DNA of 64,000 nt from a virus. Its lineage: Duplodnaviria; Caudoviricetes. The notes under the pieces were generated by a model that saw only the letters and a program-made list of their open reading frames with translations, made no database searches and was not told where the DNA came from. Each line of letters opens with the position of its first letter. The first letter of the stretch is position 1. Both the position numbers and the translations under genes were made by a program. The stretch lies in IMG/VR virus record IMGVR_UViG_3300044991_001466, one strand, 5' to 3'. Of this stretch, positions 27,503-38,461 are shown one piece after another.

Positions 27503-29989
27503 ATGGCAAATTCAAACAGAGTATTCGTTTCTCCAGGTGTATATACATCTGAGAAGGATCTAACATTCGTAGCGCAAAGCGTCGGAGTAACAACATTGGG
27601 TTTAGTGGGTGAAACCTTAAAGGGTCCCGCATTTGAACCTATTTTAATTGGAAACTTCGATGAATATAAAACATACTTCGGACCAACTTCACCTGAAAAA
27701 TATGGTGACGGTAACCCAAAATACGAATTAGGGTATGTTGCAAAATCATATTTACAAGAATCCAACCAATTATTCGTAACAAGAGTATTGGGATTAACAG
27801 GATATAAAGCAGGAAAAACATTCGGAATTAAAACTTTAGGTATTACGGGTAACACTTATGGAAACATTGTGGTTGCTGCGTTAAGATCAAGAGGACGTTA
27901 TTCAGGTGAAACTTTAATATATGAAGTTACAGGTAACACCTCATTTGAAATTGCTTCAGGTACAACTTTAGAATCAAATCCATTAGCCGAATTTACAATT
28001 AATGTAACGGGTGTAACTGGAGGTGCAAAATCATTCACTTGTAGTTTAGATACAACATCTCCAAAATTTATAACTAAAGTATTAGGAACTGCACCGTTTG
28101 ATAAGGCTTATGGTGATGTACCACTTTACGTACATGAAGTTTATCCAAATTTAAATTTAAACCTTTACCGCAAGGGTTCAATTAGTGGACTAAGTTTAAC
28201 TGAGGTATATAACGCTGAAGGTAATAATTTTGCTGACGGGTATAGTGCAGATGATTTATCTAAATTAGCTGCTATTTCACCAACTGTAGTTTCAGAAGTA
28301 AGAGGTGGTAAAGTTGACGAATTATTTGATGTCATTACAATTTCAGACGGGGATACCGCAAATATTGAGGTTAAAATAACGATACAAAATATTAATTTAG
28401 ATACTGGAGAATTTGATTTATTAGTTCGTGATTTTAATGACTCTGATGAAAATATGGTTGCGTTAGAGAAGTTTACAAGATGTAGTATGAATCCAGATGT
28501 TGCAGGTTATATCGCAAGAAAAATTGGAACATCTGATGGTGAATATTCATTAAATTCAAAATATATCATGTTATCAATGAGTGATAATGCGCCTGTCGAT
28601 GCATTTCCAGCAGGATTTAAAGGATTTGCAGGAGCAACAATCTCAGGGGCTACGTTAGGTAGTGTTTTATATAAAACTGAATTTTTTGATGCTGGAGATA
28701 CAATATATACAGGAGCCACTCTTTCAGGTTATACAGGATTAACAAGTAGTGGTGACAAATATAGAAAAACGTCATTAGGTTTATCTTCTGATGGTTATTA
28801 TAATTTTGATAGTGATTTATTTAAATATAAAGGTACGGGTTCTACTATGAATTATACCAATGGATTCCATTTGTCAACAAACGCATCTTCAATCACAGGA
28901 ACAACATATCAATGTACTCCATATGATTTAGAGGGTCAAAGTGGTGGAGATGGAAATAAATTAACATCTATTAACTATCGTAAATTCACATTTGCTGCTT
29001 GTGGTGGTCATGATGGTTGGGATATCTATAGACAAACAAGAACAAACACAGACGCATATGTCTTTGGAAAAAATACATATACATCAGGTAATACAACTAA
29101 TGGAGGGTTATTTGGAACAGCATTTGGTACCGCTAACTCAGATTTATACTCTTATTTAAAGGGTATTGAAACATTTGCCAATCCTGAGGCTGTTAATATT
29201 AACGTATTTGCAACTCCAGGTATCAATTTCTTTGACCACTCATCTTTAGTTACACAAGCTATTGATATGGTTGAAAATGATAGAGCGGATTCAATCTATA
29301 TTATTGGTTCTCCTAATGAATCGGCTTCAGCAAATGTTATTTCAGATTTAGAAGAACAAGGAATTGATTCTAACTATTCTGCAACATATTGGCCTTGGAT
29401 TCAAGTAAGAGACACAGATAACGCAACTCAACTATATATCCCACCAACAGGTGAGGTTGTTAGAAACATTGCGTTGACAGATAACGTTTCTTATCCTTGG
29501 TTCGCGGTGGCAGGTTATTCAAGAGGTTTGGTAAATGCAATTAAAGCAACCAAAAAATTAACTCTTGATGAAAGAGATGAATTATACAAGAACAGAATTA
29601 ACCCAATCGCAACATTCTCTGATACAGGTACTATTATTTGGGGTAACAAAACGTTACAAGTTAGAGAATCTGCTTTAGATAGAATTAACGTAAGAAGATT
29701 ACTATTGAGAGCAAGAAAGTTAATATCAGCTGTAGCTGTTAGATTGTTGTTTGAACAAAACGACGACCAAGTAAGACAAGAATTCTTAAGATTGGTAAAT
29801 CCAATTTTGGAAGCAATTAAGAAAGAGAGAGGTCTTTATGATTTCCGTGTAAGTGTATCAAATTCTCCTGAAGATATTGATGCTAACACATTGAGAGGTA
29901 AGATTTACATCAAACCAACTCGTTCTCTTGAATTTATTGATTTGGAATTCATTATTACTCCAACAGGAGCTTCATTTGAAAATATCTAA
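27503..29989 (+). CDS. gp18: Tail sheath protein
   Basis: SPGVYTSEKD N-terminus; YWPW, PPTG..WFAVAGYSRG, INPI, WGNKT, RINVRRL and IYIKPTRSLEFI motifs. Confidence 0.95.
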   Translation: MANSNRVFVSPGVYTSEKDLTFVAQSVGVTTLGLVGETLKGPAFEPILIGNFDEYKTYFGPTSPEKYGDGNPKYELGYVAKSYLQESNQLFVTRVLGLTGYKAGKTFGIKTLGITGNTYGNIVVAALRSRGRYSGETLIYEVTGNTSFEIASGTTLESNPLAEFTINVTGVTGGAKSFTCSLDTTSPKFITKVLGTAPFDKAYGDVPLYVHEVYPNLNLNLYRKGSISGLSLTEVYNAEGNNFADGYSADDLSKLAAISPTVVSEVRGGKVDELFDVITISDGDTANIEVKITIQNINLDTGEFDLLVRDFNDSDENMVALEKFTRCSMNPDVAGYIARKIGTSDGEYSLNSKYIMLSMSDNAPVDAFPAGFKGFAGATISGATLGSVLYKTEFFDAGDTIYTGATLSGYTGLTSSGDKYRKTSLGLSSDGYYNFDSDLFKYKGTGSTMNYTNGFHLSTNASSITGTTYQCTPYDLEGQSGGDGNKLTSINYRKFTFAACGGHDGWDIYRQTRTNTDAYVFGKNTYTSGNTTNGGLFGTAFGTANSDLYSYLKGIETFANPEAVNINVFATPGINFFDHSSLVTQAIDMVENDRADSIYIIGSPNESASANVISDLEEQGIDSNYSATYWPWIQVRDTDNATQLYIPPTGEVVRNIALTDNVSYPWFAVAGYSRGLVNAIKATKKLTLDERDELYKNRINPIATFSDTGTIIWGNKTLQVRESALDRINVRRLLLRARKLISAVAVRLLFEQNDDQVRQEFLRLVNPILEAIKKERGLYDFRVSVSNSPEDIDANTLRGKIYIKPTRSLEFIDLEFIITPTGASFENI

Positions 29990-30325: not shown

Positions 30326-30814
30326 ATGGCAGATTTACTAATGAAAATGCCGGTTCCATATGAACCGAAAAGAACAAACCGATTTATCTTAAGATTTCCA
30401 TCTTCATTGGGGATTAATGAATGGTACGTGTTCTCAACATCTAGACCAAAAGCAAAAATAAAATCAGTAGAGATACCATTCTTGAATACTTCAACATACG
30501 TGGCGGGTAGATTTGAGTGGGAGGAAATGTCTGTAACGTTTAAAGACCCAATTGGTCCTTCTGCATCACAAGCGTTAATGGAATGGTTCCGTTTACATGC
30601 TGAATCAGTTACAGGTCGTATGGGTTATGCTGCTGGTTATAAAAAAGACATTGAACTTGAGATGTTAGACCCAACAGGTGTTGTGGTTGAAAAATGGATT
30701 TTACAAGGTACTTTCTTAACAGGATTGAACTTTGGAGATTTGGACTACTCAAGAGACGATATTGCAACTATTCAAGCTTCTTTAAGAATGGATAGATGTA
30801 TTCAAGTTTATTAA
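30326..30814 (+). CDS. gp19: Tail tube protein
   Basis: 162 aa directly after the sheath gene; EPKRTNRF, AGRFEW..VTFKD and YKKDI.L.MLDPTG..W.L.G.F motifs. Confidence 0.9.
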   Translation: MADLLMKMPVPYEPKRTNRFILRFPSSLGINEWYVFSTSRPKAKIKSVEIPFLNTSTYVAGRFEWEEMSVTFKDPIGPSASQALMEWFRLHAESVTGRMGYAAGYKKDIELEMLDPTGVVVEKWILQGTFLTGLNFGDLDYSRDDIATIQASLRMDRCIQVY

Positions 30815-30917: not shown

Positions 30918-31667
30918 ATGGAAGAATATAAAATTGACCCAACAATCGCATATGACGTTGTAGAATTACCTAGTCGAGGAATTTACTACGCCAACAACAA
31001 GAAATCACTCAAAATTTCTTATTTAACCGCTGCGGATGAAAACATATTGGCAGCACCAAATTTAATACAGACAAATCAAATTGTTACAGAACTTTTAAAA
31101 AGAAAAGTTTTAGACAAAGATATGAATGTAGATGATTTAATTGAAGAGGATAAACAAGCGATTTTAATATTTTTACGAAACACAGCATTTGGCACGGAAT
31201 ATAAGTTGACATTAACTGACCCAAAAACGGATAAGACATTTGACATTGAGGTTGATTTAAGTTCATTGGATTTTAAACCATTTGATTTGGTTCCTGATGC
31301 AAATGGGGAATATTCATATTTTATGGAAAAAAGTAAAATTGATGTTACATTTAAATTTTTAACACAAAAACAAGAATTAGAAATAAAAGAAATTCAAAAG
31401 AGTTGGAATGGTAACGGGGTTGCACCAATTATCACAAAACAACTTGAATTTATGATTAAATCAATTAAGGGTAACAGAGATATTATGAATATCAGAAACC
31501 TAATTGAAAATTTACCAATAAGAGATTCCCAAAGTTTCAGGAAATTTATCAACGATAAAAAACCTGGAATCAATTTAAACAAAAAAACAACGACCCCTTC
31601 AGGAGAAGAAATCCAATTTGAAATTGGGTTTGGGGTAGAGTTTTTTCGCCCTTTCTACGGATTATAA
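30918..31667 (+). CDS. Tail/baseplate assembly chaperone, gp26-like
   Basis: VVELPSRG.YY, YLTAADENIL and DKQAILIFLR..FG.EY pattern; ends GVEFF; lies between the tube and tape measure genes. Confidence 0.7.
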   Translation: MEEYKIDPTIAYDVVELPSRGIYYANNKKSLKISYLTAADENILAAPNLIQTNQIVTELLKRKVLDKDMNVDDLIEEDKQAILIFLRNTAFGTEYKLTLTDPKTDKTFDIEVDLSSLDFKPFDLVPDANGEYSYFMEKSKIDVTFKFLTQKQELEIKEIQKSWNGNGVAPIITKQLEFMIKSIKGNRDIMNIRNLIENLPIRDSQSFRKFINDKKPGINLNKKTTTPSGEEIQFEIGFGVEFFRPFYGL

Positions 31668-31797
31668 GCGAAATCAATTAACGGAGATACTATTTTTAGT
31701 GAAAAGAGGGTTTTCATATGGGGATATTATGTCAATGCCAGTCTATGTTAGAAAATATTTTATTTCATTCATGATGGAATTAGAAAACTCTAACTAA
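31639..31797 (+). CDS. Hidden gp51-like frame (52 codons), probably reached by +1 frameshift from the chaperone
   Basis: The +1 frame reads SFFALSTDYKRNQLTEILFLVKRGFSYGDIMSMPVYVRKYFISFMMELENSN. It has no ATG, GTG or TTG in its first 20 codons and opens over TTTTTTC. Confidence 0.65.
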   Translation, partial: SFFALSTDYKRNQLTEILFLVKRGFSYGDIMSMPVYVRKYFISFMMELENSN

Positions 31798-31810
31798 TCT
31801 ATTTATATGT

Positions 31811-33697
31811 ATGGCAACAATTAATTGGGAAGAGGCGGGTAAAACATCAAAATCATTAAGACATGATGATAAACAATCCCGAGAATATGCAAAAAAGTTA
31901 AATAATGGTAACGATTTAACAATGGCAGAAACCGCGTCGTTTGCTAAGGGATATGTTGGTACCGGTAAAGAGACGTCACAAGTGTCTACTAACGTATTTA
32001 AAGGAGTTTTAGGTTCATTAAAATCACAAGAGGCTGGAGGTTCATATGGTGATAGTAAGGGGATTATGGGTGTTGACAAAATGGCCGAATTGGCATTTGA
32101 TACCGAAGGTTCTTTTTTAAAAATAGATAAAATAATCGGTAATATTGCAAAATATGGTTTAGAACAAGTAAATCAAGAATGGGCTAATCAAGCAACATTA
32201 CTAACAGATGTTAATACTAAAACTGGTTTAACAGGTAAATTATCAAAAGATTATAGAGAAGAAGTTTCGGCAGCATATCCTGCATTAGCAAGGTTAGGTA
32301 TTGAATATTCTGAATTAGCAAACGCAGCAGTTTCATTAGTTCAACAATCTGGAAAGTTTAATTTAATAAATCAAGAGACGTTTGAGTCTATGGGTTTAGC
32401 AGCTAAAGCCTATGTTGGTAGTTTGGCTGAAGTTGTTGAAATGATACCTGGATTTGAAAGGGTTGGTATTGGTGCAACGGGAGTTGTTAAATCGGTGTCA
32501 GAAGCTGGTGCAAGATCATTAACTCTTGGTTTAAATTCACAAAAAATCACAAAAGAATTGGGTCAAAATATTGGATTATTGAATTCATACGGTTTTCAAA
32601 ATGGTGTTCAAGGACTTGAAAGAATGGTTCAAAAAGCAACCGAGTTTAGAATTAGTATTGCTGAGGTTTCTAAATTGGCGGATAATGTGTTCACACCTGA
32701 AAAGGCCATTGATTTGGCTGCAAATTTACAAGTGTTAGGTGGAGCAATAGGGGATTTTAACGACCCACTTAAATTAATGTATATGGCCACGAATAATGTG
32801 GAAGGTTTACAAGATGCGTTAATTGGTGCTGCCGGTTCATTAGCAACATATAATCAAGAACAAGGAAGATTTGAAGTAACAGGACTTAACTTAAGAAAGG
32901 CAAGAGAAATGGCTCAAGCGTTAGGTGTTGATTATAAGGAACTAACCAATGCTGCGGTTGCGGCACAAGAAAGGTTAACAGCGGGAGAATCTTTATCAGG
33001 ACTTAGTATAAAAGCGGAAGATAAGGAATTCTTAACAAATATTGCACAGATGAAAGACGGTAAAATGACCGTCGCATTACAATCTAAAGAATTACAAGAC
33101 TATTTTGGTAAAACGTCTGTAGCGTTGGAAGATTTATCATCATCACAAGCTGATAAGTTATTGGATTATAAAAAAGAATTTGAAAAATTACCACCAGAAG
33201 AAATTGTTAGAAAACAAGCCACTGATATTGAAAATATTAGAAGAGATTTAACTTTCTTAGTTGCATCTGCAAGACTTGAGGGTACTAAATTAATAAAGGC
33301 GGTTGCGGATAGTACTGGATTATCATTAGAAAAAGCTGCGAAATATGTAAAAGATATGACAGGTTCAAGTGAGTCCGAAGTTAAAAAACAATTAGCACAA
33401 TTAACTGCTGAACAGAAAAAAGATAATGATAAAAAGGCTCAAAAAGTTAATGTAAATGCCCCAAAATCAAACGAAAATATAACCGCAGAACAAGTTAAGA
33501 ATGCTGCCGATAAAAAAGTTGCAGACGCAGGAAACTCAACACGAAATGTAAACATGAATATTAAAACTGAAGTTCAAGTTCCTGCGGTTATGGACGCACT
33601 TCAAAGAGAAATTGTAAAAGACCAAAGTTTATTCTCAAGTTGGGGTGCAAAAATAGATTCGGAGTTAACAACACCTTCAGTTGCTAAAGGAAGATAA
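31811..33697 (+). CDS. Tape measure-like protein (628 aa)
   Basis: A/G/L-rich helical sequence directly after the chaperone gene; size comparable to T4 gp29. Confidence 0.7.
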   Translation: MATINWEEAGKTSKSLRHDDKQSREYAKKLNNGNDLTMAETASFAKGYVGTGKETSQVSTNVFKGVLGSLKSQEAGGSYGDSKGIMGVDKMAELAFDTEGSFLKIDKIIGNIAKYGLEQVNQEWANQATLLTDVNTKTGLTGKLSKDYREEVSAAYPALARLGIEYSELANAAVSLVQQSGKFNLINQETFESMGLAAKAYVGSLAEVVEMIPGFERVGIGATGVVKSVSEAGARSLTLGLNSQKITKELGQNIGLLNSYGFQNGVQGLERMVQKATEFRISIAEVSKLADNVFTPEKAIDLAANLQVLGGAIGDFNDPLKLMYMATNNVEGLQDALIGAAGSLATYNQEQGRFEVTGLNLRKAREMAQALGVDYKELTNAAVAAQERLTAGESLSGLSIKAEDKEFLTNIAQMKDGKMTVALQSKELQDYFGKTSVALEDLSSSQADKLLDYKKEFEKLPPEEIVRKQATDIENIRRDLTFLVASARLEGTKLIKAVADSTGLSLEKAAKYVKDMTGSSESEVKKQLAQLTAEQKKDNDKKAQKVNVNAPKSNENITAEQVKNAADKKVADAGNSTRNVNMNIKTEVQVPAVMDALQREIVKDQSLFSSWGAKIDSELTTPSVAKGR

Positions 33698-33730: not shown

Positions 33731-36700
33731 ATGCCAAGTTACTTAGATTTTGATTCAACCAAAAGTTTTAGGGATAAAATATTAGGTAAAACGTTAAATA
33801 AACCAAATGGTCCACAAACGTTTACCAATACAGACTATAGTGTACAAAATTTAAGTGATACTGCCAATAAAGATTTAGACAACGTTGACACTAATAGAGG
33901 TAAAGATTTATTAATACCACAGAATTCCAATACATTTAAACCTGAAATTTACACAATTAAAGAGGATTTAAATACATTACCAAGAAGGTCTAATTTAAAC
34001 CTATACCCATATTTTCCAACTAACGGACAATCATATAATTTGATTGGAATAATGAATACAGACCGATATGATACTGAGTCTGAATTATTCAAATTTGCGG
34101 CTAATAACATTAAAAATAACACAGATGGTCCTGTATATTCAAGAATTGCTCAAAATGTTGCAAAAAACACTTTAGGTAGAGTTAGAATTCTTGATGCGTT
34201 AAATGGTAATACAACCACCGCGGTAAACATTATCACAGGTAGGGAACCCTTAATTGAATCAAATTATAAAATTACGGTTGATAATACATTAAGTATTCCG
34301 GGTCAAGCTGCAAATTTTTTGGAGATTGTATCTGGCATCCAATTACCGTTCTCAACAATACCTGGAGATTACCTTAGTAATCCATCAAATCCAATCAATT
34401 ACAGACCTGTGGCTTCCACGGAGTTAGGTAAACTATATCAAGATGTAACTGGCGCTTTAGGTTCCTTAATTGGAATAAAAAGACGTCCTAAATTAGATAG
34501 AAAACCTTCTGACCTATTGATTGAACATATGGGTCAAGGACAGAAAAATAGATTATTTGATTTGTTGTCATTTTCAAAATATTCACCAAATTACACAACA
34601 ACCGCTAGATCACAAAACACATCAAAAATATTTAGTTATGTTGATAAAGCAGCACAAGGTGTTAAAAATTTATTAGGGTTAGAGGCACCAAAAGGTATTG
34701 CATATATTGGTGACGATAGAGGAGAGGATGTGAAATATGCGATGAATGATTTTAATGATAGACCTGTTAGAAGTAGTTACTATTTAACACTATTATTTGA
34801 TGAGGTGTCAGCAAATTTATTTCACTCAACTAAAAATTATACAGAAGGTGGTTCAGTTGGTGGTAAATTATCATGGATTAGTAAAAACTCTAAAAATGAG
34901 TTAGGAGCTAATAACCAACAATATACTGATAGTGCTTCAGCATTAACAGAATCCTTATCAACAAAATACGGTTTTAGGTCGGATTCTATATTAGGAATTA
35001 CACAAGAAATATTGGATTCAATGCCATCAGATGGTGGGGCCGCTCGTTCACATGTTGCAAATGTCATTGACCAAACAAGTAGAATATTCCAAGACGGTGA
35101 TATTAAAATATCACGAGGTTCAGCAATTAAGTATACCGATAAGTACGGTGGTGAAAAGGGTGTTGAGTATTGTAGAGTTTGGACAAAAGATAGACCATAT
35201 TCACATCTTTCAGATACAATGAAAAGAACGTCAATTATTAGAAAATATGACGGTAGTGTTATGGGTGGAGGAAGTCGTCCTTGGAATTTGAATATTGGAC
35301 CGATGTCAAATGGTAGAAAATCATTTGATAATTCAACCAACATCAAAGATGGACAAGCTAAAAAGTATATGTTTTCTTTTGAAAATTTGGCATGGAAATC
35401 GTCAAATAGAGATGGATTTAGAGTTTCAGACTTACCTGTTTGTGAAAGAGGTCCAAATGGTGGTCGTGTTATGTGGTTTCCACCTTATGATTTAAAGGTA
35501 AGTGAACAAAACGCGGCAAGATGGGAAGAAAATTCATTTTTAGGAAGACCTGAACCAATATACACATATCAAAACACAGCAAGAAGTGGACAAGTTTCAT
35601 TTAAAGTTGTTGTTGATCATCCAAGTATTTTAAATCTTTTAGTGAGAGAACATTTTGGTGGAATGAGTGATGAAGAATCTGAAAATTATATTAACGCATT
35701 TTTTGCTGGATGTAAAGATGAGGATTTTTATAGTTTAATTCAAAAATACACACAATTAGATCAGAATGATGTAAACAATATTAAGGCGTATTTGAATGCG
35801 GGTTCACCTAAAGAGATTATTAAAAAATTCAAATATACATCAGAGGATGTTAAAATATCAAAACCAGATACGAATTCAGAAAAAACTAATCAACCGGCAC
35901 CATTTGAAAAACAATTCTATTTTGATAATGATTTTCCAAAAGTTGGTAGTGACGATGAAAAATCAAGTCAAACATATTCACAATTATTTGCCGCTTATTC
36001 AGGAAAAAGCGGAACTTTTGTTACCGATTTAGATGGTGATTTAAAAAAATTATTTACAGGAACCACCACAAATTATATATCAGATATTAAAACGTTATTT
36101 GGTGACACTACGGTTACAGGTTCAACAATTAGTGCAACCACAATAAATAACCAAACAACTAAAATAACAAACGCATTTAGTGAATTAACTAACACATATA
36201 ATTCATATATTGGTAAGATTAATGAAATTAAAACGGGTTTAGAAAAAAATAATATTAAAGAAGTTAATTTTAGAATTTTTACATCAACATCAGAAGTTGC
36301 TGACGACACGTATAATTTTTATTTAGGTGTAAGAAGAATTCACAGTATAATTCTTGATATTTTTGATAAAATTAAAAAAGACAAAACACCAAATTTAAAG
36401 TGGCCGTCCAAAAAAGAGTTTTCAAATTTCCAAAAAAAGGGGTTTCCACTTTCACAATTTCCATTTGGTTATACATTTGAAGATTTTGGTTATGTTGGTA
36501 ATAAAGGTGTTATAACTTTTGTACATAAAACCGAGGGTGAAAGTGCTGTGTTATCAAACGGTGGAGGTGAAAAAAATCTTGATTGTAAGACAAAATTAAA
36601 TACAACATTTGGTTTAAAAACAACTGCACCTGTTGCATTCTTTTGTAGACAGGCTAATGTTAGTATTGAAGTTAGTACAAACCCAACAGAAACAAAAGAA

Positions 36701-38461
36701 CCTACTACAATTACAATACCTAAGATTAAAATTGAAGATGACGAACCACAAACAATATATAATTCAAAACCATCAATAGATGTGATGAAAAGAATCATCA
36801 TGAAAACTTTATCTGAATGTTTTTATTTTAAACAATTAGAGGAGAAATCACCGGTGGCATTTACATCACTAAAAGAAAAATTAAAATATTTCCATCCAGG
36901 ATTTCACTCAACAACACCAGAAGGTTTGAATAGTAGATTAACATTTTTATTACAATGTGTTAGACCTGGCGATACCATCCCAATTAAGGGTACCTCAGAT
37001 AATGCGGATTTAAATGCAAGAAACACTTCATTTGGTCCACCACCTGTTTGTGTTATGAGAATTGGTGATTTTTATCATTCTAAAATTATCATTCGTGATA
37101 TTAATATTAGTTATGACGATAGTCCATGGGATATGAATCCAGAGGGTATTGGATATCAACCAATGATTGCAACAGTTCAATTACAAGTTAGTTTTATTGG
37201 TGGTCAAGGTTTAGAAAAACCTGTGGAAAGATTACAAAATGCATTATCATCTAATTTCTTTGCAAACACTGAAATGTATGATGAAAGGTCTGATTCAACC
37301 ACAACTACAATGGGTGGTAAAAAGACTGATGAGTTTACTAAAGAATTTTTGGAAGAATTAACAAAGAAACCAGAATTCCAATTAGATAAAATGAAAGAAG
37401 ATAATAAAACCGAGGTAACCGAAGGAACATATATTGGGACATTATCTGGAACAAAATTAAACTATGATACTTTAGTTAATTCGGTATATAGTACTGTTGG
37501 TCAATATACAAACACATATCAATCAGCATACACACATATTGTTAAAACATATGGTAAAAAAATTGGTGATGTTTTATTATCACCAACATATAGAACAATT
37601 AATACAATAACGGGATCTACCATAGACTTTCCAATTTCAATATTAGGAGAATATCCAACAGGACTTTTTAATGATTTAGAATCAATAGTTTTAAACATAA
37701 AAAGTGCAATGAATTCGGCAATTACACTAATTCCATTAAGTTCTTCGGTCTTTGATTTACTTGAGTTTGCTGACCCTAAAGTTGATTCATATGATCAAAT
37801 TTTTAAAGATGAAATTACTTTTATTGTTAATCAGTCTCTCGATTCTTTAGTTGAAAATAAACAAATTAAGGATGTTGAAAATGCAAGAAATGAGGTAATA
37901 TCAGTTATAGATAAAATTAATTTTATTATTGAATATGAACATGATATTCAAATTTCGGGATTAACATATACTAAATCAAATTTAACAGGTTTTGACGGCA
38001 ACGCTTTTTATCTTCAATGGAGACCAGCAATAATGTATTTAAAATCGGCAAGTGAACAAAATGTTTTGGAGTTGGAACCGACAAATCCTAATTTTACTGA
38101 ATTGACATTAAGTTTTAATTCTGAAGATTTAAAAAGTATTTTATCAATATTATTAATTGGTAAAAAAGATACGATAGTACAACAATTTGCTAGAAACCCT
38201 TTAATGTCTGCAGACGATATTGGAAATGTTAGTACTATGTTAGATAGTTTTATTTATAAAGAACCTACTTCAACATTAGGTGAAGAGAATCGACTTAACA
38301 TTATATTAGGTCCATTTCCAGTTAGACCAAATGATAAACCAATAGAATTTGAAATTTCAAGTACAGAAGAAATGACAGATGATGATGAAGGATTGGTTGC
38401 TAATAATATTTTCATAAATAAAAATAAATTGGGGACCACATTAAATTTTTATAAACCATGA
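33731..38461 (+). CDS. Large baseplate/tube-initiator protein with an inserted OmpA-like domain (1576 aa)
   Basis: Tube-initiator-like segments (W...FLGRPEPIYTY..RSG.VSF; PPVCVMRIGDFY..II..INISYD) before the LysM gene, plus an OmpA-like YN.YL..RR motif. Confidence 0.6.
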   Translation: MPSYLDFDSTKSFRDKILGKTLNKPNGPQTFTNTDYSVQNLSDTANKDLDNVDTNRGKDLLIPQNSNTFKPEIYTIKEDLNTLPRRSNLNLYPYFPTNGQSYNLIGIMNTDRYDTESELFKFAANNIKNNTDGPVYSRIAQNVAKNTLGRVRILDALNGNTTTAVNIITGREPLIESNYKITVDNTLSIPGQAANFLEIVSGIQLPFSTIPGDYLSNPSNPINYRPVASTELGKLYQDVTGALGSLIGIKRRPKLDRKPSDLLIEHMGQGQKNRLFDLLSFSKYSPNYTTTARSQNTSKIFSYVDKAAQGVKNLLGLEAPKGIAYIGDDRGEDVKYAMNDFNDRPVRSSYYLTLLFDEVSANLFHSTKNYTEGGSVGGKLSWISKNSKNELGANNQQYTDSASALTESLSTKYGFRSDSILGITQEILDSMPSDGGAARSHVANVIDQTSRIFQDGDIKISRGSAIKYTDKYGGEKGVEYCRVWTKDRPYSHLSDTMKRTSIIRKYDGSVMGGGSRPWNLNIGPMSNGRKSFDNSTNIKDGQAKKYMFSFENLAWKSSNRDGFRVSDLPVCERGPNGGRVMWFPPYDLKVSEQNAARWEENSFLGRPEPIYTYQNTARSGQVSFKVVVDHPSILNLLVREHFGGMSDEESENYINAFFAGCKDEDFYSLIQKYTQLDQNDVNNIKAYLNAGSPKEIIKKFKYTSEDVKISKPDTNSEKTNQPAPFEKQFYFDNDFPKVGSDDEKSSQTYSQLFAAYSGKSGTFVTDLDGDLKKLFTGTTTNYISDIKTLFGDTTVTGSTISATTINNQTTKITNAFSELTNTYNSYIGKINEIKTGLEKNNIKEVNFRIFTSTSEVADDTYNFYLGVRRIHSIILDIFDKIKKDKTPNLKWPSKKEFSNFQKKGFPLSQFPFGYTFEDFGYVGNKGVITFVHKTEGESAVLSNGGGEKNLDCKTKLNTTFGLKTTAPVAFFCRQANVSIEVSTNPTETKEPTTITIPKIKIEDDEPQTIYNSKPSIDVMKRIIMKTLSECFYFKQLEEKSPVAFTSLKEKLKYFHPGFHSTTPEGLNSRLTFLLQCVRPGDTIPIKGTSDNADLNARNTSFGPPPVCVMRIGDFYHSKIIIRDINISYDDSPWDMNPEGIGYQPMIATVQLQVSFIGGQGLEKPVERLQNALSSNFFANTEMYDERSDSTTTTMGGKKTDEFTKEFLEELTKKPEFQLDKMKEDNKTEVTEGTYIGTLSGTKLNYDTLVNSVYSTVGQYTNTYQSAYTHIVKTYGKKIGDVLLSPTYRTINTITGSTIDFPISILGEYPTGLFNDLESIVLNIKSAMNSAITLIPLSSSVFDLLEFADPKVDSYDQIFKDEITFIVNQSLDSLVENKQIKDVENARNEVISVIDKINFIIEYEHDIQISGLTYTKSNLTGFDGNAFYLQWRPAIMYLKSASEQNVLELEPTNPNFTELTLSFNSEDLKSILSILLIGKKDTIVQQFARNPLMSADDIGNVSTMLDSFIYKEPTSTLGEENRLNIILGPFPVRPNDKPIEFEISSTEEMTDDDEGLVANNIFINKNKLGTTLNFYKP

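Follow-up and report, generated by a model that had tools for sequence, protein, structure and literature searches.

The 64,000-nucleotide stretch analysed here (hereafter the window) comes from the virus record IMGVR_UViG_3300044991_001466 (Duplodnaviria; Caudoviricetes) and carries, between its tail tube gene and a putative tape measure gene, a gene of the T4 gp26/gp51 baseplate hub chaperone family whose 3′ end overlaps a second open frame. A preliminary description, made from the letters alone, had proposed that a programmed +1 ribosomal frameshift on a U-rich site fuses the chaperone to a hidden gp51-like domain. Its account of the frame layout, the T6C run, the TAG at 31636–31638, the 52-codon +1 frame and the peptide proved exact on direct reading of the sequence, and comparative sequence tests support its interpretation, programmed +1 frameshifting being very probably the best explanation of what lies at this locus.

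Overlapping frames at the end of a hub chaperone gene

The elements of the overlap are as follows.

30918–31667, + strand: zero-frame open reading frame (ORF) for the short form (249 amino acids), analogue of T4 gp26 (baseplate hub assembly chaperone family), from PF12322 and phrog_150 profile matches.
31636–31638, + strand: TAG in the +1 frame, the upstream bound of the interval in which a shift could occur and of any independent +1 ORF.
31641–31649, + strand: slip site TTT TTT CGC, with a proposed move of the peptidyl-site (P-site) UUU 31644–31646 to UUC 31645–31647; the zero-frame aminoacyl-site (A-site) codon is CGC 31647–31649.
31648–31797, + strand: +1-frame continuation (49 codons and TAA), the putative gp51-type C-terminal helical domain of a 292-amino-acid long form.
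31665–31667, + strand: zero-frame stop TAA, inside the conserved +1 motif [D/E]-Y-[K/R].

The zero-frame ORF starts with the ATG at 30918 and ends GTA GAG TTT TTT CGC CCT TTC TAC GGA TTA TAA, the six consecutive T residues occupying 31641–31646 and being followed by C 31647. After the TAG, the +1 frame is open for 52 sense codons (31639–31794) up to a TAA at 31795–31797, while the third frame (−1/+2), also read directly, is shut after about 13 codons. Canonical starts in the +1 frame appear late, the earliest being GTG 31699 and ATG 31729, which are 19 and 29 codons beyond the first Phe codon (31642). Both frames are open over 26 nucleotides (31639–31664), and TTT TTT C is the sole spot in this interval that allows a P-site tRNA to re-pair in +1. 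The conceptual fusion used below (P0002, 292 amino acids) was built by reading TTTC as a single step. No terminator was found between the zero-frame stop and the next gene, and no Rfam family matched in 31300–32000. With a G+C content of 31%, a random frame would stay open for 52 codons with a chance of about 1.5% (a hand estimate from base composition), and in-frame TTT_CGN, found four times in the 19,223 codons of the long ORFs of the window where roughly six would be expected, is unremarkable as a motif. What exceeds chance by far is that site, frame and peptide are all conserved in over 160 related loci.

The assignment of the window protein to the gp26/gp51 family rests on profile matches. 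The 249-amino-acid product scores 35.6 bits against PF12322 ('T4_baseplate'; cut-off 24.5) over profile positions 12–211 of 219 and matches phrog_150 ('baseplate hub') with an E-value of 1.6e-11 over positions 16–233 of 282. In the fusion, the phrog_150 match extends over positions 16–275 and gains in score, from 45.2 to 52.8 bits. For comparison, T4 gp26 (208 amino acids) covers positions 14–235 of the same profile and T4 gp51 (249 amino acids) positions 13–280, and both match PF12322. The zero-frame product therefore has the extent of gp26 and the +1 fusion that of gp51. The segment gained, from 233 to 275, is covered in T4 by gp51 alone, which bears out the earlier remark that the hidden peptide is gp51-like. 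As judged from these shared profiles and from their pairwise alignment (20% identity over 161 amino acids, E 2e-6), gp26 and gp51 are paralogues, gp51 consisting of a gp26-type core with some 45 additional C-terminal residues, a part which a newer Pfam model, PF28602, marks in gp51 homologues. Since the two T4 proteins share one core, the unshifted product would be the analogue of gp26 and the shifted product that of gp51. The idea that the window phage joins what are separate genes 26 and 51 in T4 thus holds in that one gene would make both forms, but not in that gp26 would be joined to gp51. BLASTP of the fusion against T4 gp51 gave no match, identity to the T4 proteins being so low that the link needs profiles.

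In a review of the T4 tail (PMC3004832), gp26 and gp51 are both listed as hub assembly chaperones, and gp51 is described as an essential protein that has no known function and is not part of the particle. This would suit a frameshift product of low abundance. T4 gene 26′ (L084:3803–4090) is annotated as an internal in-frame product of gene 26 comprising its C-terminal 95 amino acids, so that T4 already gets more than one product from a gene of this family, by a different route.

Several lines of evidence bear on the extension itself. In a joint alignment of gp51, natural long forms (see below), small-ORF calls and the window peptide, the elements FF/VF, DEI(L/F) and K.(G/N)(F/Y)S...IM.M.P..R are in register. 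An AlphaFold2 model of a natural homologue, P0314, has a predicted local distance difference test score (pLDDT) of 89.8 and shows the extension as three helices; in BFVD, 60 models match its fold at E <= 1e-3 under the names baseplate hub subunit or assembly protein. Neither Foldseek nor sequence searches of the PDB turned up a solved structure related to the family. A complex prediction for the tail tube protein with the 51-amino-acid C-terminal domain scored 0.00, which is no verdict and evidence for neither side.

Conservation of the proposed slip site and natural long forms

Close relatives of the window gene (the window clade) comprise 80 IMG/VR loci with 67–100% protein identity, representing 60 unique genes. 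The sequence TTY TTT CGN CCT TTC TAY GGA NTA TAR is kept in all 80 loci, the zero-frame stop falls at the identical codon, six codons after CGN, in 80/80, and in 80/80 the +1 frame is open and encodes FF[A/V/D]LS[T/M][D/E]YK..L.EIL.L.K.GF.Y.D...MP.Y.RRY. Among the 60 unique genes, the slip site varies as GAR/GAC TTT TTT CG[C/T/A], with a single GAA TTC TTT CGC. Past the zero-frame stop, the columns vary by 0.21, 0.11 and 0.36 at the three +1 codon positions, as is typical of a translated frame, and the open and codon-conserved +1 frame predicted in the preliminary description is thus found. So is the lack of a conserved start of its own: between the +1 stop and the conserved peptide, 14 of the 42 unique +1 ORFs have no ATG, GTG or TTG, an ATG is present in just three, and in 14/42 unique relatives the upstream +1 stop lies one codon before the conserved FF. 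At the nucleotide level, an island of conservation surrounds the slip site. Short contigs of otherwise diverged relatives from four metatranscriptome libraries align with the window over 45 nucleotides of this island (31624–31668) alone and differ from it to either side.

The same arrangement is seen in much more distant phages. In Flavobacterium phage immuto, the site reads AGC TTT CTT TGG CCT and in Microcystis phage Mel-JY01 AAC TTT TTT TGG CCT, the domain being in the +1 frame in both. A six-frame PF12322 search misses these two genes, and a custom profile was used instead. For the immuto clade, 79 loci were readable out of at least 599 IMG/VR matches, and the domain is in the +1 frame in 79/79; there, 14 of 58 unique +1 ORFs lack ATG, GTG or TTG before the FF..EY segment, and ATG is found in 17/58 at varying positions. 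Five more metagenomic lineages (L085, L086, L087, L092/L094 and L093) all have TTT TTT TGG CCT, again in +1. In a further genome, PQ819873.1 (L083:2983–4000), the site is GAA TTC TTT CGT CCC and the +1 ORF has 122 codons and is unannotated. This genome was deposited as Streptococcus phage vB_SagM-GXN1 (GXN1), from pond water, with 40 annotated features on 176 kb, and its +1 ORF carries an acidic insert ahead of the conserved domain. In every lineage examined the domain is in the +1 frame, never in −1. The slip sites include, beside TTT TTT TGG, the variants TTC TTT CGC (L011, L012), TTT CTA TGG (L104, L115, L126) and TTT CTT TAC (L132), and the one feature shared by all sites examined is UUU followed by C or U (UUU_Y). 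None of the isolate records of immuto, Mel-JY01 and GXN1 has a slippage annotation. Their labels for the core gene are 'baseplate hub subunit', 'baseplate protein' or 'hypothetical protein'; as for the extension, it is entered as a small hypothetical protein in immuto and Mel-JY01 and is missing from the GXN1 record. If the proposal is correct, these annotations should be amended, the core gene and its small or unannotated extension belonging together.

When a profile of the +1 peptide was run against 1.84 billion cluster representatives, 118 matches were obtained, mostly ORF calls of 40–110 amino acids starting a few codons before FF. Two of them are full-length in-frame proteins. P0314 (293 amino acids) aligns with P0002 along its full length, junction included (32% identity over 293 columns, E 2e-37). 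P0285 (308 amino acids) has PF12322 followed by the domain, covers phrog_150 positions 30–280 and matches the fusion with an E-value of 8e-18. Both are encoded directly downstream of a short paralogue. At locus L090, a 252-amino-acid short form precedes the 293-amino-acid long one, genes for 297 and 743 amino acids coming next, while at L089 a short form of 284 amino acids (profile positions 10–233) precedes the 308-amino-acid long form and is followed, after the latter, by a gene for 1009 amino acids. The short paralogue of L090 aligns with the window zero-frame protein to the last residues (..LDFFYP / ..VEFFRP; 35% identity, E 2e-42), so the short zero-frame tail is a real, conserved C-terminus. 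By contrast with these two-gene loci, the complete immuto and Mel-JY01 genomes and each of two large window-clade contigs contain a single core gene and a single copy of the C-terminal domain. These layouts suggest that the gp26/gp51-type family makes a short and a long form by two genes or by one gene with a +1 overlap.

Other layouts exist. In the GC-rich lineage represented by L088 (774–1941), one base separates a PF12322 gene (241 amino acids, ending ..EFLLPKM) from a downstream 146-amino-acid ORF that has an ATG of its own and in which an unrelated N-terminal part of 75 amino acids precedes the gp51-type domain, a third layout of the pair. On a TARA scaffold from a close relative (L091:560–760; protein P0219), a deletion of 1 nucleotide some 14 codons upstream of the slip site puts core and extension in one frame, and the residues between the deletion and the slip site match the +1 reading of other members; as this is a single scaffold of 963 nucleotides, the deletion may stem from misassembly or mark a naturally occurring variant that has the long form only.

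A candidate +1 shift and its alternatives

In the mechanism that we propose, most ribosomes would translate 30918–31667 into the 249-amino-acid gp26-type hub-assembly chaperone. A minority, holding peptidyl-tRNA-Phe on UUU 31644–31646 with the rare CGC in the A site, would move +1 onto UUC, by which the third-position G:U pair is turned into a better G:C pair, and would then read GCC CUU UCU onward to 31797. The resulting long product of 292 amino acids would have the same 243 N-terminal residues and a 49-residue gp51-type helical domain, so that one gene would supply the short and the long form at a fixed ratio, where T4 has its two paralogous genes 26 and 51. That ribosomes shift, and that they do so from this very P-site codon, is what the sequence comparisons point to. 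The efficiency of the shift is probably low, and the two forms may act in the initiation of the hub and of the tail tube. UUU-pyrimidine sites are shift-prone in E. coli. CGC is the rarest kind of codon in the window (4 of the 19,223 codons of long ORFs, 0.2 per 1000). The long form should be recognizable by mass spectrometry from its junction peptide; the VEFFALSTDYK suggested in the preliminary description is not tryptic, and the predicted tryptic form is TTTPSGEEIQFEIGFGVEFFALSTDYK for the window phage and FFPEDGPDGGVDIPIGVSFFGLTPEYR for immuto.

An upstream stimulator may also be present. An alignment-based candidate stem is formed by the following two arms.

31593–31598, + strand: 5′ arm (ACCCCU) of the candidate upstream stem, from an RNAalifold consensus.
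31631–31636, + strand: 3′ arm (UGGGGU) of this candidate stem, which is at the same time a G run resembling a Shine-Dalgarno sequence and ends 7 nucleotides before the P-site codon.

In the 60 unique genes, the closing pair of this stem is G-C in 28, A-U in 17, U-U in 14 (including the window itself) and A-C in one, with about six independent switches on the gene tree, and none of 500 shuffles reached its covariation score. The GGG of the 3′ arm is invariant at a synonymous position, despite an A+T-rich genome. Single-sequence folding of 31585–31710 is no more stable than that of shuffles (z −0.14), the support for the stem being alignment-based only, and a search of the immuto clade for a conserved structure of this kind ahead of the site gave none. 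On bacterial 70S ribosomes, +1 shifting is known to be favoured by duplexes upstream (PMC6321510, PMC3639245), and the stem or the G run is a candidate stimulator for which the evidence is thin. Further upstream, at 31599–31606, a purine-rich, Shine-Dalgarno-like string, TCAGGAGA, is invariant in the aligned window-clade sequences, synonymous positions included, and the equivalent place was located in L001, L002, L087, L092 and L093. A GGAG(G)-like purine string is present about 26–38 nucleotides upstream of the slip site across clades; a conserved Gly/Glu motif probably explains it, and it was not counted as a signal.

A number of observations speak against this proposal or limit it. The A-site codon, CGN in the window clade, is CUU/CUA or UGG elsewhere, so that this stimulator is not universal, and the CGU or CGA present at the A site in close relatives are not especially rare codons; codon rarity was counted in the long ORFs of the window itself. 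Three other in-frame TTT_CGT sites occur among the genes of the window, so the motif by itself must be weak or tolerated. The candidate stem is seen in the window clade alone and has one covarying pair. The match of the +1 peptides alone to gp51 C-termini, which spans LVK..Y...IM.M.P.ER, is modest (hhalign P 8.5e-4, probability 24%), and the separate ORF of L088 suggests that covalent fusion may not be obligatory everywhere. The variation of the A-site codon between clades suggests that the core determinant is likely the weak G:U wobble pair that tRNA-Phe forms on UUU, the efficiency being tuned locally.

The main remaining alternative, although an unlikely one, is that the +1 ORF is expressed separately, as a small gene whose product of about 50 amino acids, made by independent or coupled (termination–reinitiation) initiation, would be an unfused partner of the 249-amino-acid protein. 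Gene callers do list ORFs of 40–110 amino acids for the domain in many metagenomes, some relatives have a TTG or ATG a few codons upstream of FF, and in L088 the domain lies in an ORF which has its own ATG one base past the upstream stop. However, the start-less +1 ORFs counted above (14/42 in the window clade and 14/58 in the immuto clade) are hard to accommodate, and in the window the earliest start lies well inside the conserved peptide. In addition, the conserved segment begins within the upstream gene, right at the U run and always in +1, in all lineages, and the long forms found in nature have core and domain covalently fused and can be aligned through the junction.

The long form could also arise if RNA polymerase stuttered on the T run, some mRNAs lacking one U and being read straight into the extension. 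The homopolymers concerned (T6 in the window, T7 in many other lineages) make this conceivable, but known bacterial transcriptional slippage needs runs of some 8–9 or more. The arrangement is moreover kept where the run is interrupted, as in TTC TTT C (L011, L012, GXN1) and in the TTT CTT T or TTT CTA T of 28 unique immuto-clade sequences. Contigs from RNA libraries that cross the site show no indel, which counts little, as contigs hide minority variants. We therefore regard stuttering as very unlikely.

A −2 ribosomal slip on the U run, also raised in the preliminary description, does lead to the same frame (with one extra Phe), tRNA-Phe being able to re-pair two bases back on T6C or T7. It is disfavoured by the same broken runs, which count against both processes because both need an unbroken run. 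In TTC TTT CGC or CGT (L011, L012, GXN1), where the second Phe codon alone can slip, a −2 move would place tRNA-Phe on UCU, and in TTT CTA TGG (L104, L115, L126) re-pairing works by the +1 move from UUU to UUC alone. If one mechanism serves all lineages it must consequently be +1, and a −2 slip seems even less probable than stuttering.

The last possibility, an assembly error or a recent frameshift mutation in a single 292-amino-acid gene, for which the one-frame scaffold L091 might speak, is effectively refuted by the conservation data, the same frames, stop position and site recurring in isolate genomes and in two sets of independent contigs (80 and 79) drawn from many samples, at least 88% of sampled words of the stretch being present in 18 lake metagenome runs (all words in 15 of these), and the zero-frame tail (FFxP and 3–5 residues) being conserved and matching the end of stand-alone short paralogues.

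Genomic context and comparison with known systems

The chaperone ORF follows the tail sheath (27503–29989) and tail tube genes and precedes a gene for a large protein, the two immediate neighbours being the following.

30326–30814, + strand: tail tube protein (gp19-like), from phrog_4542 tail tube (1.9e-23); PF06841 reaches 25.2 bits, below its 28.2-bit cut-off.
31811–33697, + strand: putative tape measure protein (628 amino acids), from its position and language-model neighbours (PF10145 in 79/100 matches, PF20155 in 18/100).

Neither Pfam nor PHROG gave a match for the 628-amino-acid protein, and BLASTP showed no significant similarity between it and the immuto tape measure protein. The order tube, chaperone, tape measure (putative in the window) is common to the window and to immuto, whose record annotates a tape measure protein, and in other lineages a large gene in the tape-measure position comes shortly after the tandem short and long genes. 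After the putative tape measure gene of the window comes a 1576-amino-acid protein without family matches (33731–38461).

Among the closest known systems is that of T4, in which gp26 and gp51 are of the same protein family and correspond in extent to the short and long forms. Unlike the window phage, T4 has two diverged paralogous genes, which are divergently transcribed and not collinear, and no frameshift. The search found no literature describing recoding in gp26/gp51 genes, most subscription journals being outside its reach.

A second such system is the frameshift of the lambda chaperones gpG and gpGT, one that is conserved among phages with long tails (Levin 1993; Xu, Hendrix and Duda 2004; reviewed in PMC5009743). 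In the review by Atkins, this conservation holds among long-tailed phages 'except T4', and the sole likely +1 case is a haloarchaeal myovirus (PMC5009743). Like G/GT, the window gene lies between the tail tube and putative tape measure genes; its sequence predicts a short and a C-terminally extended product with a common N-terminus and a shift near the 3′ end, and the role expected for it is that of an assembly chaperone absent from the virion. Unlike lambda, the slip is a +1 on UUU_Y rather than a −1 on an X XXY YYZ heptamer, the −1 frame at the window site closing after some 13 codons. The proteins differ too, PF12322 being the sole Pfam family matched by the window protein at E <= 1, with no TAC family and no PDB fold match. 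The +1 slip, the lack of a TAC family and the lack of a solved fold relative make the window gene an analogue of lambda G/GT rather than a member of that group.

A wider proposal, which we consider possible but hold more tentatively than the frameshift itself, is that gp26 and gp51 are to T4-type phages what G/GT is to lambda. This pair would consist of a short and a rare long chaperone starting tail-tube or tape-measure assembly on the hub, made by a +1 shift on UUU_Y that is widespread in large freshwater, marine and cyanobacterial myoviruses, and by two paralogous genes in T4 and some others. Short and long paralogues in T4, hundreds of relatives with one gene and a +1 overlap, and lineages with tandem genes would tie the T4 hub chaperones to the fixed-ratio logic of tail chaperones. 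[quoted passage not shown] In any event, these sites (UUU_CGN, UUU_CUN, UUU_UGG) offer a varied natural set of putative bacterial +1 sites for the study of P-site wobble slippage.

Among bacterial +1 sites, that of prfB, which encodes release factor 2 (RF2), consists of CUU_UGA with a Shine-Dalgarno element 3 nucleotides upstream. The window site would resemble it in that, on a bacterial ribosome, the P-site tRNA slips by +1 to an overlapping codon rich in U, and in that a G-rich element (GGGGU) lies upstream. It differs in that its A-site codon is a sense codon, its G run lies 7–8 nucleotides upstream instead of 3, and there is no autoregulatory logic.

The core of the site is in turn identical to that of two groups of eukaryotic viruses. 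The +1 shift producing PA-X in influenza A takes place at UCC_UUU_CGU by the mechanism proposed here (PMC3498833), and plant amalgaviruses use a UUU_CGN +1 site (PMC5052127), tRNA-Phe moving from UUU to UUC with a rare CGN in the A site in each case. These viruses rely on eukaryotic 80S ribosomes, unlike the window system, and in the phage family CGN is replaceable (CUU/CUA, UGG), the conserved core being UUU_Y. Finally, +1 shifts have been described in a structural gene of Listeria phage PSA (cited in PMC9024508) and, as a likely case, in the chaperone of the haloarchaeal myovirus HSTV-2 (PMC5009743). Their genes, slip sites and hosts differ from those of the window and neither is in the gp26/gp51 family, but in both of them +1 recoding serves C-terminally extended virion or assembly proteins, as is proposed here for the window gene.

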